A program made the position numbers and the translations under genes. From contig CAZOES010000002.1 of NCBI GenBank assembly GCA_964578865.1, forward strand, positions 31,243-95,242: a stretch of 64,000 nt of DNA, written 5' to 3'. This document shows, piece by piece, positions 9,379-25,025 of the stretch (position 1 is its first letter; every line of letters begins with the position of its first letter). The notes beneath the pieces are model-generated. The model was given only the letters and a program-made list of their open reading frames with translations, was not told where the DNA came from and did no database searches. This stretch comes from an uncultured Gemmatimonadaceae bacterium. Lineage in GTDB: Bacteria; Gemmatimonadota; Gemmatimonadetes; Gemmatimonadales; GWC2-71-9.

Positions 9379-10503
9379 CTACTTGATCACATATCTGGCG
9401 ATTTTCTGCTGGTCCTCACCCAGGCGCATAATCAAATAGATCCGACCGTTCGAACCGAATCCCGCCAGAGAACTATTGCGGGGCAGCTGTACCGTTCGGA
9501 TCTGCTTCCCATCCCGTCCCACCACATCCCATACCGGGATCGAATCGCCCCATGGCCGGGAGCGCTGCAGCCAGACCTCTCCAGCCGGACTGGTCTGGCC
9601 GGCGGCAAAGGGAGGCTTCACATCGGCAAAGGGGTAGGAGAGTTCGATGCCGGCGGGTGCGCCCATCTGGGCCATCTGCACCCGAAGTTTGTCGAGAAAG
9701 GCGTCCTTCTCCACCTGGGGTACCGCGATCTTCTCGAACGGTCGCGCCGGCCCCCGAGTCCATTTCCCGTCAGGGGCCAGCCAGTCCACGGCGTTGTTGG
9801 AGGCCCGGGCCACCCAGAGTGAGCCGTCGGGCAGGACTCCGAAGAGATCACGGCCGGAGAAGATGGTCGACACGATCTTCTGCTGGACTCCGAACTGTCC
9901 TCGGCCCCACACCGGCAGCTTGAGATGGGCGATGGTGTCGGCCAGGGTGTCGGTGGCGTGGACCCGGAGAATCGGCAGGCTGTCGAAGTCGAGCTCCTGG
10001 CCCGGCTCCAGGCCGCCTAACACAGAGCGGATATCTTCCTTGTAGCCGTTGTGCTTGGCGTCGTAGGCCAGCGGCTGGTTGTAGCCGCCCACTCCGGCCC
10101 CCCGCATGGTGGTGATGAATTCGCCCTTTTCATTCCACAGGGTGGTCCGCTGAGCTCCGAAGTCCACCAGCCCCACGGTATCGCCTCCGAAATGCAGCAC
10201 GAAGCCGGGCAGCCGGTGCCTGCCCGGGGCGGGATCACCGGGCTTGATGGTGTCGCTGTGTTCGCCGATCGAAATGGTTTCGCCGCTGGTGAGATTGGCG
10301 AAAATGAAGGTCTTGTCCTTGAGCTCGGCCAGGGCGATCCGGCCGTCGGTGAGCTCGACCACGTTGCTCACCTGCTTGAAGGTGTGATCGAGAGTCAGCT
10401 CGGGCTGATCCAGTACTGCGATCGCCGTCGAGGTTTCACCGTTACAGCCGGCCAGAACGATGACAACAGCGGCGGCCGAAGCCAGCCGAGGATTCAGCTT
10501 CAT
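9379..10503 (-). CDS. Six-bladed beta-propeller lipoprotein, uncharacterised
   Basis: Lipobox LAGC; FGVLPDGSLWVAR, KPPF, PAGEVWLQR, WDVVGRDG; paralogous to 10528-11625 and 15592-16746. Confidence 0.7.
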   Translation of the reverse strand: MKLNPRLASAAAVVIVLAGCNGETSTAIAVLDQPELTLDHTFKQVSNVVELTDGRIALAELKDKTFIFANLTSGETISIGEHSDTIKPGDPAPGRHRLPGFVLHFGGDTVGLVDFGAQRTTLWNEKGEFITTMRGAGVGGYNQPLAYDAKHNGYKEDIRSVLGGLEPGQELDFDSLPILRVHATDTLADTIAHLKLPVWGRGQFGVQQKIVSTIFSGRDLFGVLPDGSLWVARASNNAVDWLAPDGKWTRGPARPFEKIAVPQVEKDAFLDKLRVQMAQMGAPAGIELSYPFADVKPPFAAGQTSPAGEVWLQRSRPWGDSIPVWDVVGRDGKQIRTVQLPRNSSLAGFGSNGRIYLIMRLGEDQQKIARYVIK

Positions 10504-10527
10504 CAGGTAGCTCCAGGAGGAACCCGG

Positions 10528-11625
10528 TCAGGGAGTGGTGCCGGCTGCCGCAGCTGGCGCGGGCATCCGGTAGTCGAGCAGACGAACCCCGCCTTCGAAC
10601 GACTCGCCGACGACGGCGACGCCTTCACCCACGGCGAGGATCCGGCCGAATCCGGCATGATCGGCGGTCCGGATCAGGTGGCCTTTGCGATCGATCAACT
10701 GATAATGCCGCAAGGTGTCGCCGATGGCGCGGTTCTTCACCAGCCATACGGTGCCATCCGGCGCGCTGAAGGCGTTGTCGAACGGCGGCTTGATCACTAC
10801 GAAAGGGATTTGGGCGACGGTGGGACGGAGGGCAGACTCGAATTTGTTGAGAAACAGGTCGCGATCGTTCTGGGTCACCGGCAGCACCGCATCGGGTAGC
10901 TCTCGTCCCCGGTGGATTGCTCCGTTCGCTTCACGCCAGTCCACCCGGTTCTGGCCCACCCGCGCGATCCATAGCGATCCATCGGGCAGCACGCCCCAGC
11001 GGTCCTGCCCCGAGAGCAGCCGCCGTTCCAGCCGGACTCGGCCCTCGCTCATCACCTCGGCGAGTTCCAGTGGCGCCAGCCGGGCAATGGTGTCCCCTTG
11101 GGTGAAGTCCGGCTTGGTGCGGACGATGGCGGCGGAATCGCGATTGCCCGAGCCATCGGGTCCGGGAGGAGGGCGGAGTTCGAAGTACCAGTTGCCTTGA
11201 GCGTCCCGGGCCCGAGGGAGGGCACCCCGCAGGGCACTCACCGCGGGTGTTGCGCCGCCCAGCTTGCCATCCAGCGACCAGGCGGTCAGCCGGCGGCGTT
11301 GCCAATCGGCCACGTAGATCGAATCGCCCGCCCGGAACAGATGGAAGGGCTGCTCCAGCTCTTTGCTCTTCGCCCCGGCGAACGGGGCCAGTTTCCGGGT
11401 ACTGAGGCTGGCGCTGCTCACCGCCCGGTCCTGTGGTGCAATCAGGGCCCAGTTACTCCCACCCAGCCACGCCGCATCGGTGATGTCACCGTAGGGCGTG
11501 AGCAGGGTATCGCCCACCGGCTCAAGTCTCAGGGTCTCTGCCTGGGGCTGCTCCGATCCACAACCCGCGGCCAGCGCCGCGGCGGTGAGGAGCAGGATGA
11601 AACGAGAGGAAATCGGGCTCTGCAT
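10528..11625 (-). CDS. Six-bladed beta-propeller lipoprotein, uncharacterised
   Basis: Lipobox AAGC; WGVLPDGSLWIAR, KPPF, APDGTVWL. Confidence 0.7.
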   Translation of the reverse strand: MQSPISSRFILLLTAAALAAGCGSEQPQAETLRLEPVGDTLLTPYGDITDAAWLGGSNWALIAPQDRAVSSASLSTRKLAPFAGAKSKELEQPFHLFRAGDSIYVADWQRRRLTAWSLDGKLGGATPAVSALRGALPRARDAQGNWYFELRPPPGPDGSGNRDSAAIVRTKPDFTQGDTIARLAPLELAEVMSEGRVRLERRLLSGQDRWGVLPDGSLWIARVGQNRVDWREANGAIHRGRELPDAVLPVTQNDRDLFLNKFESALRPTVAQIPFVVIKPPFDNAFSAPDGTVWLVKNRAIGDTLRHYQLIDRKGHLIRTADHAGFGRILAVGEGVAVVGESFEGGVRLLDYRMPAPAAAAGTTP

Positions 11626-11640
11626 GGGGCGGGAAATGTA
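11626..11640 (-). promoter_or_regulatory. Putative -10 element of a near-leaderless transcript
   Basis: Minus strand TACATT-TCCCGCCCC-ATG with no Shine-Dalgarno; nearly identical to the leuS upstream sequence. Confidence 0.35.
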
Positions 11641-11738
11641 ACGTCTGCGCGGATTTTGGTGATGCGGGTGGAGAATCGGGTAGGTGGGGAGGGGTGGGGG
11701 CAGTATGGTGGCAGGATGAGCCCAAGGGTGTGGGTACA

Positions 11739-11897
11739 GGCTCTCCAGGGGCTGTGATTGGGAGCTTTAAGTCAGCTGTTACAAGAGAACTCAACCTTCT
11801 TAGAAGAACACCTGGAGCTAGAGTCTGGCAATCCAGCCTCTATGCCCATTTGGTCAGGGATGCGGCGGACCTCCAGAGAATCAGGAGATGTATCTCC
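11739..11897 (+). pseudogene. Remnant of a REP-associated tyrosine transposase (RAYT, IS200/IS605 HUH superfamily), C-terminal part only
   Basis: GSPGAVIGSFKSAVTRELNLLRRTPGARVWQSSLYAHLVRDAADLQRIRRCIS matches the RAYT pattern SFKS.....VWQR.YYEHIIR....L.RIR.YI..NP. No HUH motif; the expected catalytic Tyr reads Cys; codon usage is atypical. Confidence 0.75.
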
Positions 11898-11975: not shown

Positions 11976-12773
11976 CTAATTCCGCGTCAGAATCTCCTCG
12001 AACAATGCCAGGGCCCGGGGATCCTCCGACTGGCCCAGCCAGAACAGCGCTGATTTCCGAACCTCGCCGCTCTTGCTGGTCCGGGCCACCTTGATCAGGG
12101 CCGGCACCCCTTCATCCCTGGGCCGCTGCGAGAGGGCGAACACCGCCTGCTTCCGAATCTCATCGTCTTCGCTGTCCGATTGGGCCAGCTGGCTGAGACC
12201 GACGGTCGCCGAATCACCGGCTGCCTGACTAACCCAGAACACCGCCTGCTTGCGGGCGTCGTGGGGAACATCCTCGTTGCGCGCCAGCTTGAGCAGTTGA
12301 GGCCAGACCTCCACCGAATCGGCCAGAGTGCTGGGGAAGATGGCGTTTTCGCCGCCCGAGTTCCTTCGGTCGGAGGCAATCGCGAGGAGCGTGGCGGCGG
12401 CCTCGCGGGGGCTCACGGTGCCGAGGTCGGTAGCGCCGGTTGAGGCCCGCCAGCTGCCTCCCACATAGGTCCGGACCCGGGTGACCCGATGGTCGGTCAC
12501 CCGGAAGACCACCCGGACCGGTCCGTCATTGCAGTTGCAGTTCCCCTCGCCGTAACTCACATCGTCGTCATCATCGGTGTGAATCCGGTGCCGGCTCCCG
12601 ACTCTGATGTTGTTGACGCCATCGCCGCAGACATCGGGCCGGGCCGCGAAACTCATCCGCACTTCACCATTGGGCGCGCCGGTGACCTTCGAGGCCAGGC
12701 CCTGGGCGCTGGCAGACGAGGCGAGTAGCAGGAGCGCTCCAGATACGGCCGAGACCTTCAGTTCGTGCTGCAT
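11976..12773 (-). CDS. Secreted HEAT-repeat protein
   Basis: Signal peptide; Cys-containing N-terminal domain; RKQAVFWVSQ, RKQAVFALSQ, RKSALFWLGQ repeats. Confidence 0.8.
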   Translation of the reverse strand: MQHELKVSAVSGALLLLASSASAQGLASKVTGAPNGEVRMSFAARPDVCGDGVNNIRVGSRHRIHTDDDDDVSYGEGNCNCNDGPVRVVFRVTDHRVTRVRTYVGGSWRASTGATDLGTVSPREAAATLLAIASDRRNSGGENAIFPSTLADSVEVWPQLLKLARNEDVPHDARKQAVFWVSQAAGDSATVGLSQLAQSDSEDDEIRKQAVFALSQRPRDEGVPALIKVARTSKSGEVRKSALFWLGQSEDPRALALFEEILTRN

Positions 12774-12796
12774 AGTGTGTCTCCCTTACCGGTTCA

Positions 12797-12830
12797 CTAC
12801 CCGCCTACCCGCCTGGCCGTCCAGCCGCTT
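12797..12830. repeat. Solo tandem 8-mer arm ((G)GCGGGTAG-type on the minus strand)
   Basis: Minus strand after TAA: GCGGCTGG ACGGCCAG GCGGGTAG GCGGGTAG. Confidence 0.5.
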
Positions 12831-14232
12831 ACTGCTCAATCACCTGCATCAGGAAATCCGCCGCCCGGGGATCCCGGCTCTGCGAGAGCCAGAAAATCGC
12901 CTTCTTCTTGAGTTCCTTATCGGGATCGGACTTGGCGATCGCCATCAGCTTGTCGACTGCTTCCTTCTCCCGCCGCTGGGAGTAGACGAAGATCAGCTGC
13001 TCCCGCATCTCCGGCTCCTTCATCCGCTCGTACAGCGAGATCAGATCGGTGACCGAAGCCTTGGTCTGGCCGGCCCAGAACAGCGCCTTTTTGCGCAGCT
13101 CGATGTCCTCCTTGCCGCTGGTGGCGACGTCCATCAGCCACTGGTCGCTCGAGGCCGACCGCACCTGGGAGATCGAGAAGAGAATCTTCTCCTTGAGTTC
13201 GTTGTTCCCGGTCTTGCCGTAGAGCGTCCTCAGGAAGTCGGCGTTGCCGGCGTCATGCGACTGCCCCAGCCAGAACACCGCCTGCTCCCGCACCTCCTCA
13301 TCGGCACTCTCCCGCATGGCCAGGTCGCGGATGATCTGCTGGGCCCGGCCCACCTTGGTCTGCGACAGTGCGAAGATTGCCTTCTTCTGAATCTCCGGAT
13401 CCTTGGACATCTGGAGGATCGAGTCGAGCGCATTCACCGACCGCTCGGTGCCCACCTGGGAGAGCCAGAACACCGCCTGTTCCCGTACCTCGCTGTCGGG
13501 ATCGTTGCGAGCCGCGTCCAGCAGGATCTGCTCGGTCTCTTCGGTACGCTTCTGCGAAACCAGGAAGACCGCCTTGCGCCGGAGGACCTCGGAGCACTTC
13601 TCCCGCCGGGCCAGCACCCGCTTGAGAATCGGCATCGCCTTGTCGGCGTCCAGCTGGAGCAGCGCGTTCAGCGCGGCGATCCGGGTGTCGTCCTCATCCT
13701 CGGTGCAGTCACCGCTGCTGTTCCGGCTGCCGGAACTGGAACTCGACGCACCGCCGCCCGACGACCGGCCCGGTGCCACCGATTCCGCCGCCACCGAGAC
13801 CCGGCGGGCTGCTTCGGCATCGCCCAGCTGAGCCAGCTGGCCCTCCACCCGGGTCCGCAGGGTGGCCGCATCGCCGTTGCTGGCCGCCTTGGGATACTTC
13901 TCCTGCTGATAGGTCAACAGCCGGCGGGCCTCGCGCAGTTCCTCCCCGCCGCCCAGACGGTAGCGGGCGAAGGCTTCCCAGTAGTAGCTGTCGGCCACAT
14001 AGCGCGACTTGGGCTGCTGATCCCGCAGTTTGCGGAAGAGGTCGGCCGCGCTGCGATAGTTAGACGAGTTCAGGGCCGCCCGAGCCGCCCGATAGAGCGA
14101 ATCGGCCGGATCGTCATCTACCCACCGGCCCAGCAGGGTCCACTCGGACCGGGGGTCCGGCAGGACCGGGCTGCTCACCACCGGGCGACTGAAGACGATG
14201 CCGGTCAAGGCCAGCAGAAGTGTGACACGCAT
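12829..14232 (-). CDS. Secreted TPR (BamD-like) plus HEAT-repeat protein
   Basis: Signal peptide; ADSLYRAAR...YYWEAFARY TPR; Ser/Gly linker; about seven E(V/I)R..A(V/I)F(W/A)LSQ repeats. Confidence 0.8.
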   Translation of the reverse strand: MRVTLLLALTGIVFSRPVVSSPVLPDPRSEWTLLGRWVDDDPADSLYRAARAALNSSNYRSAADLFRKLRDQQPKSRYVADSYYWEAFARYRLGGGEELREARRLLTYQQEKYPKAASNGDAATLRTRVEGQLAQLGDAEAARRVSVAAESVAPGRSSGGGASSSSSGSRNSSGDCTEDEDDTRIAALNALLQLDADKAMPILKRVLARREKCSEVLRRKAVFLVSQKRTEETEQILLDAARNDPDSEVREQAVFWLSQVGTERSVNALDSILQMSKDPEIQKKAIFALSQTKVGRAQQIIRDLAMRESADEEVREQAVFWLGQSHDAGNADFLRTLYGKTGNNELKEKILFSISQVRSASSDQWLMDVATSGKEDIELRKKALFWAGQTKASVTDLISLYERMKEPEMREQLIFVYSQRREKEAVDKLMAIAKSDPDKELKKKAIFWLSQSRDPRAADFLMQVIEQ

Positions 14233-14234
14233 GT

Positions 14235-14861
14235 TCAGCTTGCTCCTGGAATATTGGTGGCGGGCCCGGCCGGAATTGAGGTTCTCAGCCTGGGCAGCAC
14301 ACCCTGTTGATCGAGTTCATGCACAATCAGATCGGCGTCCTCCCGGGACGGATCGGCCTGCAGCTGGGCCACCTGGGCCAGCACCACTTCCAGCTCCCGC
14401 AGCAGTTGCCGCATCCGCTGGTCTTTCAAGTCCGGGGAATCGAGCAGCAGTCGAGTGGTGCTGAGCAGATCGCGAGCCCCGGAGAGCAGCTGCTGATCGG
14501 GCACCCGGCTGCTGGCCTCCAGCTTGAATCCGACCAGGAAAGTCTCGGCCCGGCTCAGGTGCTGCAGCGCCGCGCTGGCCATCGCCGGAGAAACCGGTCC
14601 CTGATTGGTCGGTGGATCGGTCGCCACCTGGGTGGGAGGCAGCTCCTTGTTATCCTCGGTGGCGCGGCCCAGCCCGAACCCGATCGCAATCAGCGCCGCG
14701 ATGCCCAGCGGCCAGACAATCTTCTTATAGGGGCTCGGCTGCTGCCGGGCCTTCTTCCGGGCCTCGATGGCCGCCCACATCTCATCACGGGGCGGAACCG
14801 GGGGCCGGTTGTATTCCTCACGAGCCTGTTCCAGCAGGCGGTCCATCGGGTCTTCAGTCAT
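14235..14861 (-). CDS. Putative single-pass anti-sigma factor without a ZAS motif
   Basis: Overlaps the sigma stop; short cytoplasmic N-terminus, one TM (IVWPLGIAALIAIGFGLG), helical extracytoplasmic domain; no HxxxCxxC. Confidence 0.65.
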   Translation of the reverse strand: MTEDPMDRLLEQAREEYNRPPVPPRDEMWAAIEARKKARQQPSPYKKIVWPLGIAALIAIGFGLGRATEDNKELPPTQVATDPPTNQGPVSPAMASAALQHLSRAETFLVGFKLEASSRVPDQQLLSGARDLLSTTRLLLDSPDLKDQRMRQLLRELEVVLAQVAQLQADPSREDADLIVHELDQQGVLPRLRTSIPAGPATNIPGAS

Positions 14862-15433
14862 CGGTTCCAGTCTCCTGCATGAGGTCCGAGTGCGGTCCTC
14901 AACCTGGCGCGGGCCCGGAACAGCTGGGCTTTCGAGGTGCCCGGATCGATCCCGAGCAGGCCGCCAATTTCCTCGTGGGTGTATCCCTCCAACTCGTGCA
15001 GCACCAGCACAGCGCGATAGCCATCCGGCAGCATGTCGATCGCCTCGTAAAGCTTCTTCCGCAGATCCGGCTCCAGCCCCGGCTTGCTGCTGGCGATCGG
15101 TTCGGCTTTTTCCAGATCCTGCTCCCGGTCCCAGCGCCGCTTCCGCTGTCTCAACCCCGTCAGGGTCACGCTGATCGCGATGCTCCCCAGCCAGGTCGAG
15201 AAGGACGACTCCCCGCGGAAGGTGGCCAGCCGGTCAAAAGCCCGGACAAACGCATCCTGGGTGAACTCCCGGGCCAGCTCGGCGTCGCCCGCCATCCGAT
15301 ATACCATCCGGTAGACCCGGTCCACATGGCGATCGTACAGGTCCCGCTCCGCGGCGGGATCGCCGATGAGGGCTCGCGCGATCACCGCGCGGTCGTTCCC
15401 GGGGTTGGCCCGGATGGTCATGGGCGATGCCAT
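14858..15433 (-). CDS. ECF RNA polymerase sigma-70 factor
   Basis: Region 2 (ARE.TQDAFVRAF...FRGESSFSTWL) and region 4 (LPDGYRAV.VLHELEGYTHEEIG..LGI..GTSKAQLFRAR). Start taken at 15433 (or 15421), not 15571. Confidence 0.92.
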   Translation of the reverse strand: MASPMTIRANPGNDRAVIARALIGDPAAERDLYDRHVDRVYRMVYRMAGDAELAREFTQDAFVRAFDRLATFRGESSFSTWLGSIAISVTLTGLRQRKRRWDREQDLEKAEPIASSKPGLEPDLRKKLYEAIDMLPDGYRAVLVLHELEGYTHEEIGGLLGIDPGTSKAQLFRARARLRTALGPHAGDWNR

Positions 15434-15444
15434 TGGCTGGACGG

Positions 15445-15472
15445 TAGACAACCGCACCCGCCAAAGGGTTTC
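15445..15472 (-). promoter_or_regulatory. Candidate ECF-type autoregulatory promoter
   Basis: Minus strand GAAACCC-N16-GTCTA, 11 nt upstream of ATG 15433; the AAC-to-GTC spacing equals that of the sigmaE-type GGAACTT-N16-GTCTA. Confidence 0.5.
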
Positions 15473-15591
15473 GTGCGACCCCCCGGAGGGGCGGGGCATC
15501 CTACCCCCTGCCCGGTAAGATCCTGGGAGACCACCGGTTTCCCACCCCCGAAATGCTTCATTCCGGATCACCCTCGAGGAGGCTTCGCATC

Positions 15592-16746
15592 ATGGCCAGG
15601 CTGGTTGGTCGGTTCGGCGCGGCACTGCTGACACTCGCGGTTCCCGCCACTCTCGTCGCTCAAGGCAAGGTCGCGGAACAGCGGCTGGAAAAGGCCGAGG
15701 CCGAGTTCCCGGAATCATTCGACCAGATTGGGGCCCTGCGTGAACTGCCGGGCGGTAAGGTCCTGCTGGTGGACCTTGGTCCCAAGTCGCTCATTCTCGC
15801 CGATTTCAAGAGCGGCCAGCAGACGGCGGTCGGTCGCAACGGTCAGGGTCCCGGCGAGTACCAGTTTCCCGGCGCCCTGATTCCTTATCTGGGTGACTCC
15901 ACCTTGCTGGTGGATCTGGTCAGTCGCCGGCTGTTGACGGTGAGCGCTGACGGCAAGATGGGCAAGACGGTTCCATTCCCCGACGCACTCCAGGGGCTGG
16001 CGCAGCCCCGGGGGGCCGATCGTCAGGGGCGGATCTATCTGCAGGCCAGTCCCTTCCGGATCGGCGATGGAGATGGTCCGCCGGCCACGCCTCCCGAATC
16101 GACGGTCGTAATCAGGTGGGACCGCAGCAAGAACAAGATCGACACCATCGCCAAGGTGAAGATCCCGGCTACAAAAATGAACGCCTCCAATTCCGGCGGC
16201 GCTCGCATTGTGATGATGCGGCCGCAGCCGTATGCCCCGCAGGATGAATGGGCCACGACCGGGGACGGCCGCCTGGGCGTGGTTCGGGTAGGTGACTACC
16301 ACGTGGACTGGTACGGCGACCGCGCCGCCAGGGGCACCCCGGTGCGCTACGACCCGGTGAAGGTGACTGCCGACGACAAGACCCAGTTCATGGATGCGCT
16401 GAGGAACACCCGCAACCGCATCACCGTGACCAATGGCGGGCCGGGCGGCGGCCGGGAGCTCAGACCACCGGAACCATCGGCTGATGAATTCGACTGGCCC
16501 GAGGTGAAGCCCCCGTTCCGGTCCCGTCAGGTCTATGCCAGCCCCGACGGCCAGCTCTGGGTCCAGCGTTACACCGCCGCACGTGATTCGGTTCCGGCCT
16601 TCGATGTCTTCGACGCCAGTGGCAACCTGGCCGGCCGGATGACCCTTCCCAAAGGCCGGCAGGTCGTCGGACTGGGTCAGGGGACGGTGTACGCGGTTCG
16701 GACCGACGGTGATGGACTGCAGTGGCTGGAGCGGTATAAGCGGTAA
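15592..16746 (+). CDS. Secreted six-bladed beta-propeller protein, paralog of the two at 9.4-11.6 kb
   Basis: RBS GAGGAGG then ATG 15592; signal peptide; GQGPGEY, WATTGDG, KPPF, SPDGQLWVQR, FDVFDASG. Confidence 0.75.
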   Translation: MARLVGRFGAALLTLAVPATLVAQGKVAEQRLEKAEAEFPESFDQIGALRELPGGKVLLVDLGPKSLILADFKSGQQTAVGRNGQGPGEYQFPGALIPYLGDSTLLVDLVSRRLLTVSADGKMGKTVPFPDALQGLAQPRGADRQGRIYLQASPFRIGDGDGPPATPPESTVVIRWDRSKNKIDTIAKVKIPATKMNASNSGGARIVMMRPQPYAPQDEWATTGDGRLGVVRVGDYHVDWYGDRAARGTPVRYDPVKVTADDKTQFMDALRNTRNRITVTNGGPGGGRELRPPEPSADEFDWPEVKPPFRSRQVYASPDGQLWVQRYTAARDSVPAFDVFDASGNLAGRMTLPKGRQVVGLGQGTVYAVRTDGDGLQWLERYKR

Positions 16747-16754
16747 CAGCAACA

Positions 16755-16831
16755 GCGTGAAAAGTGAAACGTGAAATGTGAACGGGACCGGGCCAACTTC
16801 CTTCTCACTTTTCACTTTTCACTTTTCACGC
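16755..16831. repeat. Tandem-heptamer inverted-arm element (GTGAAAN x4 / TTTTCAC x4)
   Basis: GTGAAAA GTGAAAC GTGAAAT GTGAAC, spacer, TTCTCAC TTTTCAC TTTTCAC TTTTCAC; between convergent genes. Confidence 0.85.
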
Positions 16832-16838
16832 AGTTGTC

Positions 16839-17582
16839 TCACCGTTCTCCACTTACGGCGTAAGAACGGGTCGGCACCGCCCACCGAATTCCCCGTTCCA
16901 CGTACCCGAAACGCCGCAGGGCCATCTCGATTACCCACTCCCAGCCGGCCCGGGCGACCGCCTCGACCCAGGCCATTTCAGTCGCGAGCCGGAGCCAGCG
17001 CCGGAGCGAGCGAGGATCCACCCCCGCGGTCAACGCCGCCAACTCGAGCGACACGTGGCCCGGTAGTGCCGGGGCGGTGAGGATCTGGACCAGCCGAGCC
17101 AGTCCCCGCCAGTCGCGCACCTCCAGCGAGCCCAGGGCGCGGACCCGCCGGGTCAATGTCCGAGGTGGACGGGGGTCGTCTCCCCCGTCGCCGAAGCAGG
17201 CGCCAAGGGTGCTGGCAGTGCCCGGTCGGGCCAGCCGTTTCTCGACCCAGAGCGCGATGGTGGTCGGTTGGGGAGTCGGTCGCCGGGCAATCGCGCGGAG
17301 GGCCCGTTCGGCCGGCGCGAGCCCGGGATAGTCACCGGGGTAGAGCGGGGCGAAAACTCCCGGGACGGACTCAAAAGCAGAAAGGCACGCACTCGACACT
17401 TTCCGGTCGGCGACGCAGGTGACCAGAGGGCACCACGGCGCGTCCCGGTGTTCCTGTACCGCTTCCGACAACGCGGTGATGCCGGCGGAGAGATCCGCCA
17501 CGATTGCCGACCCAACCGGTGGCCGAAAGGAGCCGGCGGGAAGGAACCGCAGGTACGGAGGTTCGAGAATATGGAGTGACAC
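16839..17582 (-). CDS. Divergent AraC/XylS-like transcriptional regulator
   Basis: Two HTH-like segments, PPRTLTRRVRALG and SLELAALTAGVDPRSLRRWL; unassigned N-terminal domain; divergent from the propeller/peptide genes. Confidence 0.5.
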   Translation of the reverse strand: MSLHILEPPYLRFLPAGSFRPPVGSAIVADLSAGITALSEAVQEHRDAPWCPLVTCVADRKVSSACLSAFESVPGVFAPLYPGDYPGLAPAERALRAIARRPTPQPTTIALWVEKRLARPGTASTLGACFGDGGDDPRPPRTLTRRVRALGSLEVRDWRGLARLVQILTAPALPGHVSLELAALTAGVDPRSLRRWLRLATEMAWVEAVARAGWEWVIEMALRRFGYVERGIRWAVPTRSYAVSGER

Positions 17583-17778: not shown

Positions 17779-18741
17779 ATGCGATTCCTCGTCCAACGGG
17801 CCCCCTGGATCAGTTTGACCATCGCGCTCATCGGTCTCTCGGCCGATCAGCTGGCGGCGCAAGCATGTCCCAGCGGCCCAGTCGCTCTCGATGCGCGGGC
17901 TACCCTCCTCCTTCCCGCGTCCTTCGGTATCTCCGGAGTCGCAACCTCGCCCTCCGGAATTCTGACTCTATGGTCGGCTAACGGCGAAATCTTCGCGATA
18001 GATCAGAAACGCACACTGATAAGAATCCAGCTACCCGACACCATTCGGCCGGCGGGCATGACCGTCACGCCGGATGGAATCCGGATTCTGGATCTGCTGA
18101 ACGGACGGGAGTATCTCCGCCACCCCGACGGCACCTTCGCGCTGACTGGTCAGGTTCGGCTCGGCATGGCCGACCAGATTGATCAGGCACTGTGGCGGAA
18201 GGACGGCTGGATTATCGGCCTGCGAGACCTGGCAAGCCGCCGCTTCGTGGTACGTCGTTTCTTCGACACCACTGGGCAGGAACTGTTCCGCTCGGCTCCT
18301 TCCGACAGCGTCAAGACAATTCAGCGCTATCACCTTAGCGACTCAAAGCGGGGTCTCCTGTTAACCCGCACCATGAGCCCGTTCACGGTAATCCGGCTGG
18401 ATCCCGCCAGCGGCATTGCCGACACCCTGCAATCGTTAGCCGACGGTTCGACCCTCGCGATTCCCCCGGACAGCCTGGCCCACTGGCGGGCCCTCTCTGC
18501 GGTGGCCCTCGACTGCACCCTGTTGCTCACCCTGAGTGATCTCACCGCCGACCGGCGGATCCTGGTCCGCTACGGTGCGGACGACCGGGTGGCCCAGGCC
18601 ACCCAGCTGGATGCCCCGCTCGGCTTGATAGCCCGGTTGCCGGGAGAAGATGCCGTGCTGGCGGCCCGCCGGGCCGGCGAACTGGAGTTGGTGTGGTATG
18701 ACTGGCACTGGGTCCGGGAGCCCAGCTCAAACATCCGTTGA
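17779..18741 (+). CDS. Secreted protein, probable divergent beta-propeller
   Basis: Signal peptide (..LAAQ); about six blade-like repeats (GVATSPSGILTLW, GMTVTPDGIRIL, ALWRKDGWII, LSDSKRGLLL, AVALDCTLLL, ARLPGEDAVL). Confidence 0.55.
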   Translation: MRFLVQRAPWISLTIALIGLSADQLAAQACPSGPVALDARATLLLPASFGISGVATSPSGILTLWSANGEIFAIDQKRTLIRIQLPDTIRPAGMTVTPDGIRILDLLNGREYLRHPDGTFALTGQVRLGMADQIDQALWRKDGWIIGLRDLASRRFVVRRFFDTTGQELFRSAPSDSVKTIQRYHLSDSKRGLLLTRTMSPFTVIRLDPASGIADTLQSLADGSTLAIPPDSLAHWRALSAVALDCTLLLTLSDLTADRRILVRYGADDRVAQATQLDAPLGLIARLPGEDAVLAARRAGELELVWYDWHWVREPSSNIR

Positions 18742-18762
18742 TCCATGAGGAGAACGATCAAT

Positions 18763-19215
18763 ATGCGCATGAAATCTTTGATAGTATTGTTAGGCTTGAT
18801 CTTGCTGCTGGCGGGAAGTCCTCGGGTGGCCTCGGCCCAGAGCCTCGCGTCCCTCGCAGCGGCCAACGCGGTTACCGCAGTCGAAAAGCACCCGGGATGC
18901 TGGGGCTGTGGCGTCTACATGGGTATGTCCGTCTGTCAGGGGGGATTCGTGCCGGGCGCCTTCAACTGCACCTCCGGCCTTGCCAACGGTTGCACGCTGA
19001 GCAGCCCCGGCTGCGGCGGCGGTGCGGCCCTGCCGATCGATCCCGACGGGGCGACTCAATATGTGTCACGGGGCAGCTTGCTGGTGGAGCAGGTTGTGTT
19101 CCACGACGGGGATCCGCCAGTTAGGCGGAACTGTGAAGGAATCGTAGTCGCGCGGAAGCAGACTTCTGACGATATTAAGAGCGTACGGAACCGTACCGGT
19201 ACGCTCACCCTCTGA
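18763..19215 (+). CDS. Small secreted Cys/Gly-rich protein (peptide-precursor-like, 150 aa)
   Basis: RBS GAGGAG at 18747-18752; Sec signal ending ASA; core CxxC-x8-C-x10-C-x7-C-x6-C; C-terminal domain with RRNCEGIVVAR. Confidence 0.75.
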   Translation: MRMKSLIVLLGLILLLAGSPRVASAQSLASLAAANAVTAVEKHPGCWGCGVYMGMSVCQGGFVPGAFNCTSGLANGCTLSSPGCGGGAALPIDPDGATQYVSRGSLLVEQVVFHDGDPPVRRNCEGIVVARKQTSDDIKSVRNRTGTLTL

Positions 19216-19238: not shown

Positions 19239-20444
19239 ATGTCCATGTCCCGCCAGCGTTACACATTCATTGCCGTTCTCAGTCTCGGCCTCTGGTTGCA
19301 GCCTCAGACGCCGCCGGTCGTATCCGTCGACCGGGTGGTTGCCCAGCGCGACGCGCAGTTCTCCGTTCCCGACAGCGTGCGGGCACTGCTCTCGTATGTC
19401 ACCGGGCTGGTGCTCGACTCCGACAGCACGCTCTATTTGTCGGATTATCAGCTGGGCGGGATCATCCACCTGGAATCGTCGGGGGATTTCCGTCGAGTCA
19501 TCGGGAACCGCGGCGGTGGTCCCGGGGAGTTCAATTCGATTCTGGCTCTCGGACTCCACCAGGACTCGCTATGGGCCATGGATCCCGCCCTGGTCCGTTT
19601 GACCCTGATTCCCAGACAGGGGCGGGGGGCCACCACGGTGCCCTTCGGCTCCTCCGCGGCGACCGTGGCTTCTCGCGGCAGGCCCCAGACCCGCAGGGGA
19701 TTGCCGGCCACCGTCCTGCCCGACGGATCGCTGCTGATGCAGGAAGTGGTACTCGACAGCGGCGGGGTCGCCGGCAAGTCGGGTTTCGCCTTTCTCCTCC
19801 GCGCCGACCGCAATCTCGAAGTCTTGGATACCCTGGCCCGGTTTCCCATGGGGCACTCCGACATGGGATTCGAGTACCGTGACGGGGCAGCGCTCTATAA
19901 TCAGCCCTTTGGGGATGATCCGGTCTACCGGGTGTCCAGCGACGGAGCCTTGCTGGTACTGGTCAGCCGGGAAGCCTCCCGTCGCGGCGGAGAGGCCACG
20001 TTCAACGTCACCGCGCTGCGGAACGGGCGGGAAGTGATATTTCACCGCGAGATCGCCTATCAACCGCGCCGGCTTCCCCGCTCAGAGGTCGACAGCGTGG
20101 TGAATGCGCTGGCTCACCCCCAGCCCCGCAATCCCCCGACGCCGATTACGGCGGACTCGATTCTCCGCCAGCTCTATCGCCCGGCATTCTATCCCCCGGT
20201 GAAAGAAGTCCGGGTGGGCCGCGACGGCGCGGTCTGGCTCCAGGTCAACTTTGCCGATTCCCCTGTTGGAGTGGGAGACTGGCTGATTCTCTCCCGCAAG
20301 GGATTCGAAATGGCGCGGGTCACGTTCCCTGACAGGTTCCGGTTATTGGAGGCCAACCGCCGGAGCGTCTGGGGAGTGGAAAGCGATGCGCTGGACGTGC
20401 CGCTCGTCAGCCGCTACCAGATTCCGGAGTGGACCGCGCAGTAG
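19239..20444 (+). CDS. Secreted six-bladed beta-propeller (TolB-like/NHL) protein
   Basis: Signal peptide; GNRGGGPGEF, VLPDGSLL, VSSDGALL, VGRDGAVWL, C-terminal VWGVESDALDVP.V.RY. Confidence 0.75.
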   Translation: MSMSRQRYTFIAVLSLGLWLQPQTPPVVSVDRVVAQRDAQFSVPDSVRALLSYVTGLVLDSDSTLYLSDYQLGGIIHLESSGDFRRVIGNRGGGPGEFNSILALGLHQDSLWAMDPALVRLTLIPRQGRGATTVPFGSSAATVASRGRPQTRRGLPATVLPDGSLLMQEVVLDSGGVAGKSGFAFLLRADRNLEVLDTLARFPMGHSDMGFEYRDGAALYNQPFGDDPVYRVSSDGALLVLVSREASRRGGEATFNVTALRNGREVIFHREIAYQPRRLPRSEVDSVVNALAHPQPRNPPTPITADSILRQLYRPAFYPPVKEVRVGRDGAVWLQVNFADSPVGVGDWLILSRKGFEMARVTFPDRFRLLEANRRSVWGVESDALDVPLVSRYQIPEWTAQ

Positions 20445-20504: not shown

Positions 20505-20631
20505 CCTTTCGGGGCCCTGCGAGCGGGTCTGTCGCGGAAGGATATTGCGCGCTTTATTGGTACTAACCCCCTCCTGCGACCGTGCTAACGTGTGGCGCAT
20601 CATTATCGCCACCGTTGACACGCGAAACGAC

Positions 20632-21765
20632 ATGACCCGGTACTCCAGTCTCCTTCTGGCAGTCGTGGTGCTGGCCCTCCCGGCCTGTAAAGGCAAGGCG
20701 GCGCAGGCCGAAGGCGAAAAACCGTCCTCCGGCGGTGACGAAGCCGGTCTGGGTGGCGGTTCCAGTCTGGCGCTGCCGGTGGCCGGTGAGCCGGTCCGCC
20801 AAGGCGATCTGGTTCTCACCGTCGCAACCACGGGTCAGGTCCGTTCCGAGGCGATTGCATCGCTCAAGGGGGAGACCAATGGAACCGTCGAGGATGTCCT
20901 GGTCCGGCCGGGCACCCGGGTGAAAAAGGGCGATCCGATCATCCGATTGGATCCCCGTCCATTCGATCTGGCGGTTCGAGAGGCTGAAGCCAGTCTGGCC
21001 GAAGCCGACATCAAGTATCAGGGCAGTCTCGCCTCCGACTCCATTCTGCTGGGTCCGGCTCAGGAAGCCGGCCGGCTCAAGAATGCCCTGGCCCTTTCCG
21101 GGGTACCGGCAGCGAAGGTTCGCCTCGAACGGGCCCAGCTGGATCGCGAACGCGCCACCATCACCGCGCCGTTCGACGGAATCGTCGATCGCGTCAGTAT
21201 CGCCGCGGGTGAGCGGCTTTCCCCGGGTCAGGATGTCGCGACCATCGTGGATGTCTCTCACCTCAGGGTCGAAGCTCAGGTGCTGGAGCACGACCTTCCC
21301 TACGTGCGCAGTGGCGGTGAAGCGCTGATCTCCACCCCGGCGACCCAGGGCAAACCGGTGCACGGCCGGATCGCCGCGGTGCTGCCGCTGGTCGACTCCA
21401 CCAGCCGGGCCGGGCGAGTGGTCGTCGGGGTGACCGCCGGACCCGGCTCGCCGCTGCAGCCCGGGATGTACGCCGATATTCGCCTCGAAGCGACCAGGCT
21501 CCCCAACCGCATCATCGTCCCGGCCCGCGCAGTTATCGAACGCGATGGTCGCCCGCTGGTGTTCGTGGTCAAAGGCGGCCGGGCGCAGTGGGTCTATATC
21601 GTCCCCGGGCGCAGCAACGGGGCCGAGACCGAGGTCCTCGCCGACTCCACCTCGGGGCAGATTCCGGTTTCGGTAGGAGACACGGTCCTCACCGAAGGCC
21701 ACCTCACCCTCACTCACGATGCTCCGGTCAGAGTCCTTTCTGCCAAAGAAAGGGCGGAGCCCTGA
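20632..21765 (+). CDS. RND efflux periplasmic adaptor (MFP), lipoprotein
   Basis: ATG 20632; lipobox LPAC; V..G..VKKGD.I..LD, ITAPFDGIV, LQPGMYAD. Confidence 0.9.
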   Translation: MTRYSSLLLAVVVLALPACKGKAAQAEGEKPSSGGDEAGLGGGSSLALPVAGEPVRQGDLVLTVATTGQVRSEAIASLKGETNGTVEDVLVRPGTRVKKGDPIIRLDPRPFDLAVREAEASLAEADIKYQGSLASDSILLGPAQEAGRLKNALALSGVPAAKVRLERAQLDRERATITAPFDGIVDRVSIAAGERLSPGQDVATIVDVSHLRVEAQVLEHDLPYVRSGGEALISTPATQGKPVHGRIAAVLPLVDSTSRAGRVVVGVTAGPGSPLQPGMYADIRLEATRLPNRIIVPARAVIERDGRPLVFVVKGGRAQWVYIVPGRSNGAETEVLADSTSGQIPVSVGDTVLTEGHLTLTHDAPVRVLSAKERAEP

Positions 21766-21768
21766 TTT

Positions 21769-21845
21769 CGTGAGACGGGAGACGTAAGCCGTGAGCCGCA
21801 CCTGGCTCACGTTGACGTCCCACCTCTCACGTCTCACGTCTCACG
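21769..21845. repeat. Tandem-heptamer inverted-arm element (GTGAGAC / GTCTCAC)
   Basis: GTGAGAC GGGAGAC GTAAGCC GTGAGCC ... GGCTCAC ... GTCCCAC CTCTCAC GTCTCAC GTCTCAC; fills the gap between the MFP and RND1 genes. Confidence 0.8.
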
Positions 21846-21851
21846 GTTGTT

Positions 21852-24800
21852 ATGTCCCTCGCCTCTACCGCCCTTAAACGTCCGGTCACCACCATCGCGG
21901 CAACCATCGCACTGGTTCTGCTCGGTGCGGTGTCGCTGGGTCGGCTGCCGGTAACTCTGCTTCCCGACGTCACCCTGCCGGTGCTGACTATTCGCACCCT
22001 CTATCCCGGCGCGGCGGCCACCGAAGCGTCCCGCTTTGTGGCGGAACCGGTTGAAGAAGCGATTGCGGCGACGCCGGGTCTGGTGGAGTTGCGTTCGGTG
22101 AGCCGGAACGGCGAGGTCACTACCACCGCGCAGTTTGCCTGGGGCACCGACATGGCTGCCACCGTGCTGACAGTACGGGAGCGACTGGACAACGCCCGAG
22201 CCCAGCTGCCGGAGACCGCCGAACGTCCCACGCTGCTGACCAGCGATCCGGGTCAGCGGCCGATCGCTGTCCTGGGTGTTACCGGCTCGGGCGACCAGCG
22301 AGCCATTGCCCGGCTGGCCGAACAGGTGCTGGCCCGCCGGCTGGAACAACTGGATGGCATCGCCAGTGTAGCGGTGACCGGGGTGCCGGAAGACGAGATC
22401 CGGGTCGAACTGGATCCGGGCCGGCTCCGGGCGCTGGATCTCACCACCGAGAACGTGGTAACCGCAATCAGGAACGCCAATGCCGCCGCGCCGGGCGGGA
22501 CCATCCGGCGGGGTCAATTCCGGTTCTCGGTACGGGCGCTGACTGAACTTCGTCAGCTCGATGAGTTCGCCCAGATTCCGGTAGGCCAGTCGGGGCGGGC
22601 CGGCGGTCCGATCAAACTCTCCGACGTCGGCAAGGTCTCGCTCGCCACCGCCGATCCCCGGACCCTGACCCGGCTCGACGGTACTCCCGGTATCGGTCTG
22701 GTGGTCTACAAGGATGCCGGAGCCAACACCGTTGCGGTCACCAGTGACATGGTGGAGACCGTGGAGCAGCTGGGGAAGGAATTCCCCGAGGTCAAGCTCA
22801 AGGTGGTGGCGGCTCAGGCCCGCTTCGTGACCGACGCCCTTTCCAACCTGACTCAGGAAATTGTCGCCGGCGGGCTGCTCTCGCTGCTGCTGATTCTCCT
22901 CTTTCTGCGCGATTGGCGCAGCGCCCTGGCCATCGGTCTGATCGTTCCCCTTTCGGTGCTGGTTTCACTCACCGCGCTGCAGATGCTCGGCGTTACCATC
23001 AACGTTCTCTCGCTGGGCGGACTGGCCCTGGGTGTCGGTCTGCTGGTGGACAATGCCATCGTGGTGTCGGAGGCCACCGGGCGATATCGCGAGGAAGGGA
23101 TGGAGCGCTGGGTGGCCGCCAAGGTCGCTGCCGAGGAAGTCTCCGGTCCGCTGATCGCCGGAACCCTGACGACGGTACTGGTTTTCGGACCGATCGTATT
23201 CGTCCGTGGTCTGGCGGCGGCGCTGTTCCGCGATCTCTCACTCGCGGTAGTCGCCTCGCTGACCGCGTCGCTGATTCTGGCGCTGACCTTGATGCCGGTC
23301 CTTCTGGTGGGTCGAAGAAAGACGGGCGCGACGGGCAAGACGGGCCACAACGATCCGTCCGGCCCGCCTGCCTCGTCCGCCGCGCCCGTCTCCTGGCTGA
23401 CCCGGCTTGGCCTGCAACTGGCCGAGTGGTATGAACACGGCATGATGTGGTCGCTGGATCATCCCCGCACCGTGTTCACCATTTCGATTGGGTCGACTGC
23501 GCTGGCCGCCTGGCTCACGCTGCAGTTGCCGCGGGAAATCCTGCCTCAGGTGGACGAAGGGGTTGCGATTGCCTCGCTACGACTGCCGGAAGGCACCGCA
23601 ATCGAGGAAACCGCCCGTCAGGCCGCCCGAGTGGAAGCCGCGGCGAGCAGTCTCGGGTCTAGAGGGATCTACTCCCGAATCGGCGCCGCCACTGACGAGG
23701 AGCTGGTGTCCGGGGCCGAGCCGGGCGGGCCCAGTTATGCACAGCTGCTGTTGCCGGTCCCCAGCGGATCGCCGGCCCGGAAATTTGCCGATCAGTTGCG
23801 AGCCAGGATCCCCGATCTGGCACAGGGCGGTCTGGCCATCGACCTGGCGGGTCAGTCGGAGTTCGGCAGTCTGATCGGCCGGGAGGGCCGGTTGCTCCGG
23901 GTGGAGATTGCCTCACCCGATCGACGCACCACCGCGCGGTGGGCCGATACCGCTCGGACTTTGCTCAACGGAGTGCCCGGACTCACCGACGTTCGCGATG
24001 CCTACGCCGGAACTCAGCCGGTCATCGAGCTGAGTCTGGAGCGCGAGCGGATCGCGTTGCACAATCTGTCGATCGATGCCGTCTCCAGCGCATTGGCCGG
24101 CGGATTGGGGGGCGTCAAGGCGAGCGAGCTGCGGGAGACCGACCGGCGAACTCCCATCCGGGTCCGCTACGAGGGCAGTGCTAACGAAGACCTGGCTACC
24201 GCACTCAACGCCACCATCAGCGGAGTGCCACTGGGACAACTGGTACAGGTGAAGGAAGTACGTGACCCGGTCGAAGTGGTGCGGGTCGACCAGCGCCCGG
24301 TGCAGGTACTCGAGGCCGCGGTCGAACGAGGGGGCACCGCCAAAGCGGTCGAGCGGGTGCAGAGCACCCTCGCCGGTCTGGCCGCTCCGGCCGGCCTCAC
24401 CTGGCAGATCGGCGGGGCCGACACCGAGCAACGCCGGACCCTCTCCGAGATGGGGGTGGTCGCGGTACTGTCGGTGGCGCTGATGTTTCTGGTGCTGGCC
24501 GGTGAATTCGCCTCGTTCACCATTCCGCTGCTGGTGATGCTCACGGTTCCGCTGGCCGGAGTGGGCGGGATCGTAGTGCTCTGGCTGACCGGCCAGAGTC
24601 TCAATGCGGTGTCGTTGATCGGTATGGTGGTGATGATCGGTCTGGCCGACAATGACGCGGTGGTGAAACTCGATGCCATCCGTCGGTTCCGGGAGGAAGG
24701 GCACTCGATCCGGGAGTCGGTGTTGCTGGGTGGACGCCAGCGGCTCCGCGCGATCGCCATGACCTCGCTGACTACCATCGTGGGTGTGCTGCCCCTGGTG

Positions 24801-25025
24801 ATGGGTTGGGGCAGCGGCGGCGAGCTGTACCAGCCGCTGGCCGCCGGGGTAATCGGTGGCTCGGTGACCGCCACCCTGGTGACCTTCTTCCTGCTTCCAA
24901 CAGCATATGCGGTGGTCGAAGAGCGGGCTGAGAAACGTCAGGCGGTCAGGCGGTCAGGCGGTCAGGAAGCAACTGATTCCGACTCAGGTCCGACCGCCCG
25001 TCCGCCTGTCCGCCCGACCGCCTGA
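21852..25025 (+). CDS. RND efflux permease 1 (AcrB/AcrD/AcrF family)
   Basis: 1057 aa; LKRPV..., PVEEAI, GLLVDNAIVV (TM4), IGLADNDAVV (TM10), RLRAIAMTS (TM11). Confidence 0.93.
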   Translation: MSLASTALKRPVTTIAATIALVLLGAVSLGRLPVTLLPDVTLPVLTIRTLYPGAAATEASRFVAEPVEEAIAATPGLVELRSVSRNGEVTTTAQFAWGTDMAATVLTVRERLDNARAQLPETAERPTLLTSDPGQRPIAVLGVTGSGDQRAIARLAEQVLARRLEQLDGIASVAVTGVPEDEIRVELDPGRLRALDLTTENVVTAIRNANAAAPGGTIRRGQFRFSVRALTELRQLDEFAQIPVGQSGRAGGPIKLSDVGKVSLATADPRTLTRLDGTPGIGLVVYKDAGANTVAVTSDMVETVEQLGKEFPEVKLKVVAAQARFVTDALSNLTQEIVAGGLLSLLLILLFLRDWRSALAIGLIVPLSVLVSLTALQMLGVTINVLSLGGLALGVGLLVDNAIVVSEATGRYREEGMERWVAAKVAAEEVSGPLIAGTLTTVLVFGPIVFVRGLAAALFRDLSLAVVASLTASLILALTLMPVLLVGRRKTGATGKTGHNDPSGPPASSAAPVSWLTRLGLQLAEWYEHGMMWSLDHPRTVFTISIGSTALAAWLTLQLPREILPQVDEGVAIASLRLPEGTAIEETARQAARVEAAASSLGSRGIYSRIGAATDEELVSGAEPGGPSYAQLLLPVPSGSPARKFADQLRARIPDLAQGGLAIDLAGQSEFGSLIGREGRLLRVEIASPDRRTTARWADTARTLLNGVPGLTDVRDAYAGTQPVIELSLERERIALHNLSIDAVSSALAGGLGGVKASELRETDRRTPIRVRYEGSANEDLATALNATISGVPLGQLVQVKEVRDPVEVVRVDQRPVQVLEAAVERGGTAKAVERVQSTLAGLAAPAGLTWQIGGADTEQRRTLSEMGVVAVLSVALMFLVLAGEFASFTIPLLVMLTVPLAGVGGIVVLWLTGQSLNAVSLIGMVVMIGLADNDAVVKLDAIRRFREEGHSIRESVLLGGRQRLRAIAMTSLTTIVGVLPLVMGWGSGGELYQPLAAGVIGGSVTATLVTFFLLPTAYAVVEERAEKRQAVRRSGGQEATDSDSGPTARPPVRPTA
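24938..25025. repeat. Tandem-octamer inverted-arm element embedded in the 3' end of RND1
   Basis: (GGCGGTCA)x3 ... CCGACCGC CCGTCCGC CTGTCCGC CCGACCGC CTGA; translated as QAVRRSGGQEATDSDSGPTARPPVRPTA*. Confidence 0.8.

Follow-up and report, generated by a model that had tools for sequence, protein, structure and literature searches.

An exported six-plus-one-cysteine protein and its conserved three-gene cassette with propeller genes in Gemmatimonadota

A stretch of 64,000 nucleotides from contig CAZOES010000002.1 of an uncultured Gemmatimonadaceae bacterium (the window) was analysed around gene D, an open reading frame (ORF) of 150 residues at 18763-19215 on the plus strand, which was read from the sequence and an ORF list. 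Its product carries a signal peptide, a core with six cysteines and a distinct tail with a seventh, and it represents a new unannotated protein family of more than 100 members with no Pfam, NCBIfam or PDB relative. Two genes for exported proteins, here called C and E, enclose it. Among the non-identical full-length D genes, 25 could be read on their upstream side, and C directly precedes every one of them; 25 could be read on their downstream side, and every one is directly followed by an E-type propeller gene. The reading that we tentatively favour is that D serves as a disulfide-stapled, two-module small subunit or ligand of an extracytoplasmic complex with C and E, and not as a precursor resembling those of peptides that are ribosomally synthesised and post-translationally modified (RiPPs).

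Anatomy and conservation of gene D

The frame of D could open at 18745 or at 18763, and the ATG at 18745 has no ribosome-binding site. The start was set to 18763, since a GAGGAG Shine-Dalgarno sequence (18747-18752, plus strand) lies 10 nucleotides before this ATG and homologues begin at the equivalent methionine. From here, the protein is laid out as MRMKSLIVLLGLILLLAGSPRVASA | QSLASLAAANAVTAVEKHPG - core CWGCGVYMGMSVCQGGFVPGAFNCTSGLANGCTLSSPGC - GGGAA - LPIDPDG...RRNCEGIVVAR...TLTL, where the bar marks the site after ASA at which the signal peptide would be cut according to the A-x-A rule. The core cysteines are spaced C-x2-C-x8-C-x10-C-x7-C-x6-C, from C46 (18898) to C84 (19012-19014), and 9 of the 39 core residues are glycine while none is charged. 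The tail comprises 66 residues including the seventh cysteine; it runs from GGGAA through LPIDPDGATQYVSRGS, a variable stretch and RRNCEGIVVARKQTSDDIKSVRNRTGTLTL to the stop codon. The original prediction had described a tripartite secreted protein of signal peptide, six-cysteine core and distinct tail, and every one of these elements was found where it had been placed (Table 1).

Among 5.8 billion proteins searched, 71 homologues of approximately 150 residues were retrieved (E values 1e-23 to 1e-79). When 1.84 billion cluster representatives were searched by profile, 66 proteins were returned at E<=1e-3, most of them 125-156 residues long and aligned from the first cysteine through the C-terminus. 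With 71 homologues, a wider family found by profile and an invariant cysteine pattern, D is by these comparisons a genuine conserved gene and not a chance ORF. The 13 related loci in species-representative genomes all belong to metagenome-assembled genomes (MAGs) of Gemmatimonadota (Gemmatimonadales/Gemmatimonadaceae), and DNA nearly identical to the window was found in biofilter, sand-filter, sludge and drinking-water metagenomes.

In an alignment of 41 orthologues, all seven cysteines are invariant, as are Q26, G65, N68, S81, G83, G85, D93, D95, G96, V101 and S102, followed in the C-terminal module by R122, N123, G126, V129, R131, Q133, R142, T145 and the terminal L150. Conservation along the protein is uneven, with segment means of the top-residue frequency between 0.49 and 0.86, and uniform conservation as one globular domain, set beforehand as the pattern that would speak against a tripartite protein, was not seen. 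The comparatively low mean of the core results from the interruption of its invariant scaffold by three hypervariable loops (residues 50-57, 70-76 and 78-79). The suggestion of a hypervariable core beside a conserved tail was thus borne out for these loops on the one side and for the junction and the C-terminal module on the other. The same pattern fits a stable two-domain protein equally well, the core scaffold itself being invariant.

Beyond the orthologues, the features kept throughout the superfamily are limited to the signal peptide, C-x2-C plus four more cysteines, the DG turn, a linker of variable length and the ending R-x-C-x-G-x-I-V-A-R-x-[YQ]...R..T..L.L-COOH, with the protein always stopping directly after the last L/I of the C-terminal module. 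Since superfamily members share both modules, core and tail appear to travel as a pair far outside the orthologue group. The profile search detected no tail-only family, the tail-only matches being fragments (P0086, P0130). It did return four proteins of 75 residues that consist of the signal peptide and the core alone and end at PGCG(x); a metagenome scan yielded no further core-only peptides. Because these proteins end exactly at PGCGx, a domain boundary can be placed at the junction, in agreement with the position chosen in the original prediction, and the core is probably a separable module.

Structure prediction depended on the depth of the alignment. From 41 close orthologues, AlphaFold2 produced a poor model with a predicted local distance difference test score (pLDDT) of 55, and 108 diverse sequences raised the overall value to 65. 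In the latter model, the core was predicted with a pLDDT of 80-87 as four strands in two beta-hairpins, the C-terminal strand-helix reached a moderate 60-79, and the spacer was disordered. A confident core next to a moderate tail would be compatible with a tail that becomes ordered on a partner. Foldseek comparison of this model with the PDB gave no match (best E=6.7). At the sequence level, D matched nothing in Pfam or NCBIfam at E<=1 and nothing in PADLOC, and a PDB sequence profile search returned spurious cysteine-rich matches only (RNase A and retroviral zinc knuckles, E>=0.05). An assignment of D to the light chain of methylamine dehydrogenase (MADH), the bufferins, SCIFF-like peptides or any other curated family was rejected on the lack of a Pfam, NCBIfam or PADLOC match. 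Neither the D family nor the C-D-E triad was present in the curated libraries searched, and a full-text literature search, DUF5128 included, returned nothing relevant.

The conserved LPxDPDGxxQYVS segment resembles a propeller blade, and it matched four YVTN-type propeller repeats (SPDGSTLYVSN) of the 635-residue protein P0131 (approximately residues 380-600) with E=6e-4. A tail that forms a single NHL or other propeller blade was nevertheless rejected, as hhalign comparisons of the D profile with the E and C profiles gave probabilities <=0.4%. The junction of D looks like a generic DG hairpin and not like a propeller homologue.

The same data bear on whether D could be a secreted antimicrobial or toxin-like mini-protein, such as a defensin, a knottin or a Gly-rich microcin, with diversifying loops. 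This role would suit the six cysteines, the glycine-rich and hydrophobic character of the core, its hypervariable loops and the occurrence of several divergent D paralogues in one genome. The core resembles knottins and defensins in its length of about 39 residues, its six cysteines, its predicted beta-hairpins and its loops that vary on a fixed cysteine scaffold. The net charge of the core, however, is 0 in D of the window and averages -1.4 with a maximum of +1 across the 108 members; a neutral to anionic core is not defensin-like. As Foldseek found no defensin or knottin fold in the PDB and sequence searches no relative among them, the defensin/knottin likeness of the original prediction was not upheld. 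Moreover, the core is joined to a conserved module of about 65 residues with a lone cysteine, the coupling of D to two propellers is strict, genes for immunity or export are absent, and PADLOC was silent. An antimicrobial D is the least probable of all the accounts considered here.

Cysteine parity and the lone tail cysteine

Core and tail cysteines were counted separately in the 108 aligned members. The combination 6+1 occurs in 99 of them, 8+1 in four and 10+1 in two; two members read as 7+2 purely from the position of the alignment boundary, and one has its tail cysteine replaced by serine. An even number of core cysteines (6, 8 or 10) with exactly one tail cysteine is therefore kept in 107 of 108 members, and extra core cysteines were added only as pairs.

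Further evidence comes from one of the core-only relatives. On a metagenome contig of 43% GC (locus L022, 4032-6546), consecutive genes encode a membrane protein of the MauE/DoxX family that has a C-G-C motif, a redoxin of the ResA/MauD type (CQTC), a DUF5128/NHL propeller and, directly downstream, the core-only peptide. This order recalls dedicated oxidase/propeller clusters, for example assT-dsbL-dsbI and mauB-E-D-A. Taken together, the even-plus-one parity and the MauE-like/redoxin pair at this locus make three disulfides within the D core likely, as the original prediction had proposed. The propeller of L022 matches the hidden Markov models (HMMs) of E and its paralogue A, and because it carries three cysteines of its own, the peptide is not necessarily the sole client of the oxidase pair. 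MauE proteins are able to substitute for DsbB, with a CXC motif as the active site, and are now seen as generalist oxidases (bioRxiv 10.64898/2026.03.05.709764).

The seventh cysteine (C124) had been proposed to be unpaired, which is supported by the single tail cysteine in 107 of 108 members and by neighbouring proteins that lack a conserved partner cysteine. E has no cysteine in most close orthologues. C has two, one directly after the signal peptide and one in an LDC motif; they probably pair with one another, since two paralogous C proteins miss both together, and a D paralogue that adjoins a cysteine-free C still has its tail cysteine. On these grounds, a disulfide between the lone cysteine of D and a cysteine of C or E was rejected. 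Lacking a conserved hetero-partner, the tail cysteine would therefore be either a free, reactive thiol or part of a disulfide between two D molecules. Intein-like or other autoproteolysis at the Asn-Cys pair (RRN|C) was likewise rejected, as the asparagine is constant in no more than the closest group, other members having P/A/G/D/Q at this position.

A lone cysteine in a small exported protein encoded beside propellers calls to mind the small subunits of propeller enzymes that carry a cofactor. In such an account, D would be the cofactor-bearing or redox subunit, with C124 and/or W47 converted to a cross-link or quinone. The light chain of methylamine or aromatic amine dehydrogenase (MauA) is, like D, small, exported, disulfide-rich and encoded next to its beta-propeller partner, and MauE-like (CGC) and MauD/ResA-like (CxxC) genes adjoin a core-only relative of D. 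The single replacement of the conserved tail cysteine by serine, and a regulator gene of AraC-like type next to the cassette that suggests induction by a small molecule, would also suit a cofactor. The details differ considerably, however. MauA shares neither sequence nor fold with D, which has no match to the Pfam families of the MADH light chain (Me-amine-dh_L) or heavy chain. MauA contains twelve cysteines in six disulfides, compared with 6+1 in D, and two conserved tryptophans that form tryptophan tryptophylquinone (TTQ), compared with no conserved tryptophan pair in D, whose sole tryptophan W47 is swapped in the superfamily for Y/F/M/L/V/T/K and others. The MADH heavy chain is seven-bladed and the NHL partners of D are six-bladed; the MADH cluster includes MauG and amicyanin, but the C-D-E cassettes examined contained no gene for a haem enzyme of the MauG kind, for a radical-SAM enzyme, for a cytochrome or for a cupredoxin.

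A second comparison is QhpC, the gamma subunit of quinohemoprotein amine dehydrogenase, a small cysteine-rich subunit with cysteines in non-disulfide roles that belongs to a three-protein periplasmic assembly including a propeller. QhpC has no Sec signal and depends on three helpers: a radical-SAM maturase, a protease dedicated to it and an ABC exporter. None of these helper genes was found in the C-D-E cassettes, and D has a Sec-type signal. NHLRC2 and plant SOQ1, both among the PDB relatives of E, also combine a six-bladed NHL propeller with thiol/disulfide chemistry, but their redox module is a fused thioredoxin fold, unlike the separate, non-thioredoxin mini-protein D. Taking these differences and the generalist nature of MauE together, we regard a cofactor-bearing D as highly improbable.

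The C-D-E cassette and its possible function

HMMs built from the neighbours of D in the window were run on all loci collected. One further locus, from the metagenome scan of a three-member subgroup, again showed the C-D-E order. The order extends to distant cassettes on contigs of 53-62% GC (L029, L030/31, L032 and L033), from which the upstream gene B is missing. The C family never occurred without D in the loci examined, and E-type propellers were also found alone. In the window, 21 nucleotides separate C from D and 23 nucleotides separate D from E, and no site resembling a terminator falls in these gaps. In L030, the genes C and D share 4 nucleotides. Cassettes can occur two or three to a genome, and these divergent copies each include a separate D: L025 contains a tandem pair, L002, L012 and L013 have a second cassette, and L027 stems from the same MAG as L014.

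The profile of E and its paralogue A was compared with the PDB and matched TRIM-NHL proteins over 3-5 stretches with E values from 3e-44 to 1e-27, alongside PknD, Brat, PAL, NHLRC2 and SOQ1, with the strongest similarity in the first blades. By this measure, E is a bona fide NHL propeller; its family spans approximately 375-400 residues. Members of the C family, at approximately 300-350 residues and with a signal peptide, show only weak similarity, to the NHL propeller of PknD and to E in its first blades (hhalign E of approximately 1e-3, probability 22%). An invariant histidine or cysteine is present neither in the alignment that mixes E with A-type paralogues nor in that of C. A PAL-like zinc site in the propellers is therefore disfavoured, which leaves catalysis in general unaffected.

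These results are relevant to the alternative, put forward in the original prediction, that D is a precursor, with the core freed near GGG after export, the tail acting as follower, recognition element or intramolecular chaperone, and C and/or E as the processing or modifying proteins. A self-sufficient core is suggested by the 75-residue homologues that stop at PGCGx; the junction is the most conserved segment among the orthologues; PAL, a peptide-processing NHL propeller, is a structural relative of E; and variable core loops with a conserved tail resemble the logic of a precursor. Sec-exported RiPPs do exist: bufferins are cysteine-containing RiPPs with a Sec signal, derived from DUF2282 or BUF_6/12Cys precursors and accompanied by MNIO (DUF692) and DUF2063 partners (PMC11626156). 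They are, like D, small, exported and cysteine-containing, and they set a precedent for a RiPP with a signal peptide, but D has no Pfam match and no MNIO- or DUF2063-type genes lie within +/-8-10 kb. More generally, no conserved protease, maturase, radical-SAM, MNIO or ABC exporter gene was found beside D in approximately 25 loci, where the wider flanks differ and conservation is limited to C, E and, in Gemmatimonadota, B. The junction is not rich in glycine in distant members, which keep just the DG, and its high conservation in orthologues is not that of a linker; processing at GGG, raised in the original prediction, gained no support. The tail, including its lone cysteine and its exact C-terminus, is conserved across the superfamily in the manner of a functional domain, and the alignments of E/A and C lack metal ligands of the PAL kind. 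The precursor and follower interpretation is weakened by the lack of processing machinery and by this domain-like tail, and we consider it unlikely.

The favoured account of D as an intact component of a complex would work as follows. D would be exported via Sec and cleaved after ASA. Its first module would be a beta-hairpin mini-domain of approximately 39 residues with three disulfides, in which an invariant scaffold presents three hypervariable loops. Its second module, the tail of approximately 65 residues, would combine the conserved DG hairpin with a terminal strand-helix-strand that holds the single invariant cysteine. C, D and E would be co-transcribed, with D as the small component beside the propeller-like C and the NHL propeller E. 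D would be kept intact and, bound to the propellers, serve in a non-catalytic role as their subunit, ligand or adaptor, with the variable knot loops supplying specificity and the tail docking or cross-linking D. The lone cysteine would most simply form a D-D disulfide dimer, or else provide a reactive thiol.

Several points weigh against this account. The complex is suggested by gene order, which would also fit a relation of enzyme and substrate. Related Gemmatimonadota MAGs contribute many of the 25 cassettes, whose synteny is partly inherited and not independently maintained. The core-only homologues indicate that the core can be functional when no tail is attached. An NHL propeller can have enzymatic activity, as the presence of PAL among the PDB matches of E illustrates. 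Finally, the AlphaFold2 model of the tail is weak, and no structural or sequence analogue was found to anchor a function.

A bolder version, which we likewise rate as unlikely, would make C-D-E a previously undescribed, extracytoplasmic three-part device in which two NHL-type propellers surround a disulfide-knot protein with a chemically active tail cysteine. This single invariant residue would provide a thiol for catalysis or cross-linking, or else the starting point of a protein-derived cofactor. D would then be a functional analogue, of unrelated fold, of the small subunits of amine dehydrogenases with TTQ or cysteine tryptophylquinone, and paralogous cassettes with their own AraC-like regulators would differ in substrate or ligand specificity through the hypervariable knot loops.

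Exported, disulfide-stabilised small proteins encoded with a propeller partner are a known kind; the fold of D, the 6+1 cysteine rule and the triad with two propellers are new. Gemmatimonadota are abundant in soils, biofilters and sludge and are poorly understood. Their genomes show large expansions of secreted six-bladed propellers, a subset of which is tied to this three-gene module, whose make-up is strictly conserved and of which a genome often has several paralogous copies. The triad thus offers experiments a concrete way to approach the ligands or activities of these propellers. If the lone cysteine is chemically active, a new type of machine made of a small subunit and propellers would result; if it is inactive, D would still be a new, compact scaffold held by disulfides, with loops diversified in nature.

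Neighbouring genes and further observations

The features of D and its neighbours are summarized in Table 1.

Table 1. Positions of gene D segments and of neighbouring genes in the window, with segment conservation in orthologues.
Feature	Position	Strand	Description	Mean top-residue frequency
Gene A	15553..16746	+	397-residue paralogue of E, 22% identity over full length	
Gene B	16839..17582	-	247-residue cytoplasmic protein, divergent from C-D-E; helix-turn-helix (HTH)-like DPRTLRRW segment	
Gene C	17779..18741	+	320-residue exported beta-rich protein, weakly NHL/PknD-propeller-like	
D, signal peptide (Sec-type)	18763..18837	+	residues 1-25; n-region MRMK, h-region SLIVLLGLILLLAG, c-region VASA|Q; Q26 invariant; from sequence and alignment	
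D, Ala-rich spacer	18838..18897	+	residues 26-45; QSLASLAAA...; kept only in closest orthologue group; predicted disordered, pLDDT 36-43	
D, six-Cys core	18898..19014	+	residues 46-84; invariant scaffold C-W-x-C / GG-x-x-PG-x-x-NC / SSPGC; three hypervariable loops	0.62
D, junction	19015..19074	+	residues 85-104; G[AG]GAxLPxDPDGxxQYVSRG; top conservation in orthologues; superfamily keeps only DG turn	0.86
D, variable linker	19075..19119	+	residues 105-119; length and sequence differ across family	0.49
D, C-terminal module	19120..19212	+	residues 120-150; R-x-C-x-G-x-I-V-A-R-x-[QY]...R-x-T-x-x-L-x-L-COOH; predicted strand-helix-strand	0.77
D, codon of lone tail Cys C124	19132-19134	+	seventh Cys; from sequence	
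Gene E	19239..20444	+	401-residue exported NHL-repeat six-bladed beta-propeller; GxGPGEF motif; no Cys	

Two gene calls differ from the usual D layout. P0092 (262 residues) joins the C-terminus of C to D, and P0084 (186 residues) is a D with a hydrophobic, unrelated tail; most likely, both are frameshift or assembly artefacts of short contigs and not true fusions. In the metatranscriptome run X25, two short contigs with 85-95% identity match 18701-18867 and 19099-19170 of the window. They cover only D of a related strain and neither C nor E, which is too weak to serve as evidence of expression and gives a faint hint at most of D as the most abundant transcript.

The original prediction had named a metal-binding site as an alternative to three disulfides, and the regions further up- and downstream raise the alternative that D binds copper, zinc or cadmium in the periplasm through reduced cysteines. 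An operon at 12829-15571 on the minus strand encodes an extracytoplasmic function (ECF) sigma factor (Sigma70_r2/r4), a putative anti-sigma protein of 208 residues and a HEAT/TPR-repeat protein; it is syntenic in L001 and in no other cassette. Directly downstream of E, at 20653-25025 on the plus strand, lie a resistance-nodulation-division (RND) efflux adaptor (HlyD_D23/CusB-like) and an AcrB-family pump, and RND-type genes also follow the cassettes of L001, L002 and L025. This adjacency and seven cysteines, including a CxxC, would suit a metal binder tied to RND efflux and ECF control. Yet RND-type genes do not follow the cassettes of L027, L029 and L030, and in these loci and in L033 no RND/ECF adjacency exists at all. 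As the ECF and RND neighbours are not conserved with the cassette, and with a cysteine parity that points to disulfides, a disulfide-forming MauE/redoxin pair beside the core-only relative, no conserved histidine or methionine in D and no match to Pfam metal-binding or bufferin families, such a role is very unlikely.

Gene A is syntenic in the closest orthologue group and lies outside the universal C-D-E triad. Together with E it belongs to four paralogous secreted NHL-type propellers with the GxGPGEF motif within 12 kb (9382-10527 and 10531-11766 on the minus strand, 15553-16746 and 19239-20444 on the plus strand). Related MAG loci hold up to six such propellers, a lineage-specific expansion in Gemmatimonadota. 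Several long ORFs are antisense to or overlap real genes (12607-14310 and 14612-15631 on the plus strand, 15715-16815 and 20563-21837 on the minus strand); being typical of DNA with 64% GC, they were not counted as genes.

Gene B lacks a signal peptide, has a conserved DPRTLRRW...GWEW segment and gave sub-threshold HTH_18/HTH_AraC matches in 3 of 18 members (best E 2.9e-4), by which it is probably an AraC-type regulator. All Gemmatimonadota cassettes include it, and it also adjoins lone propellers. B-type genes stand divergent to a lone propeller, with neither C nor D, in L006 (9712-11640), L007 (2160-4184 and 4243-5100), L018 (9614-11629) and L021 (4960-6970). Judging from these pairs, the basic unit seems to consist of regulator plus propeller, with the C-D pair inserted in some copies. 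Three B paralogues, all on the minus strand (L012 9717-10496, L013 9711-10472 and L020 9478-10302), carry a (Thr-Asp)n insertion of approximately 4 to 16 repeats in the middle of the protein, and this tract may be prone to slippage.

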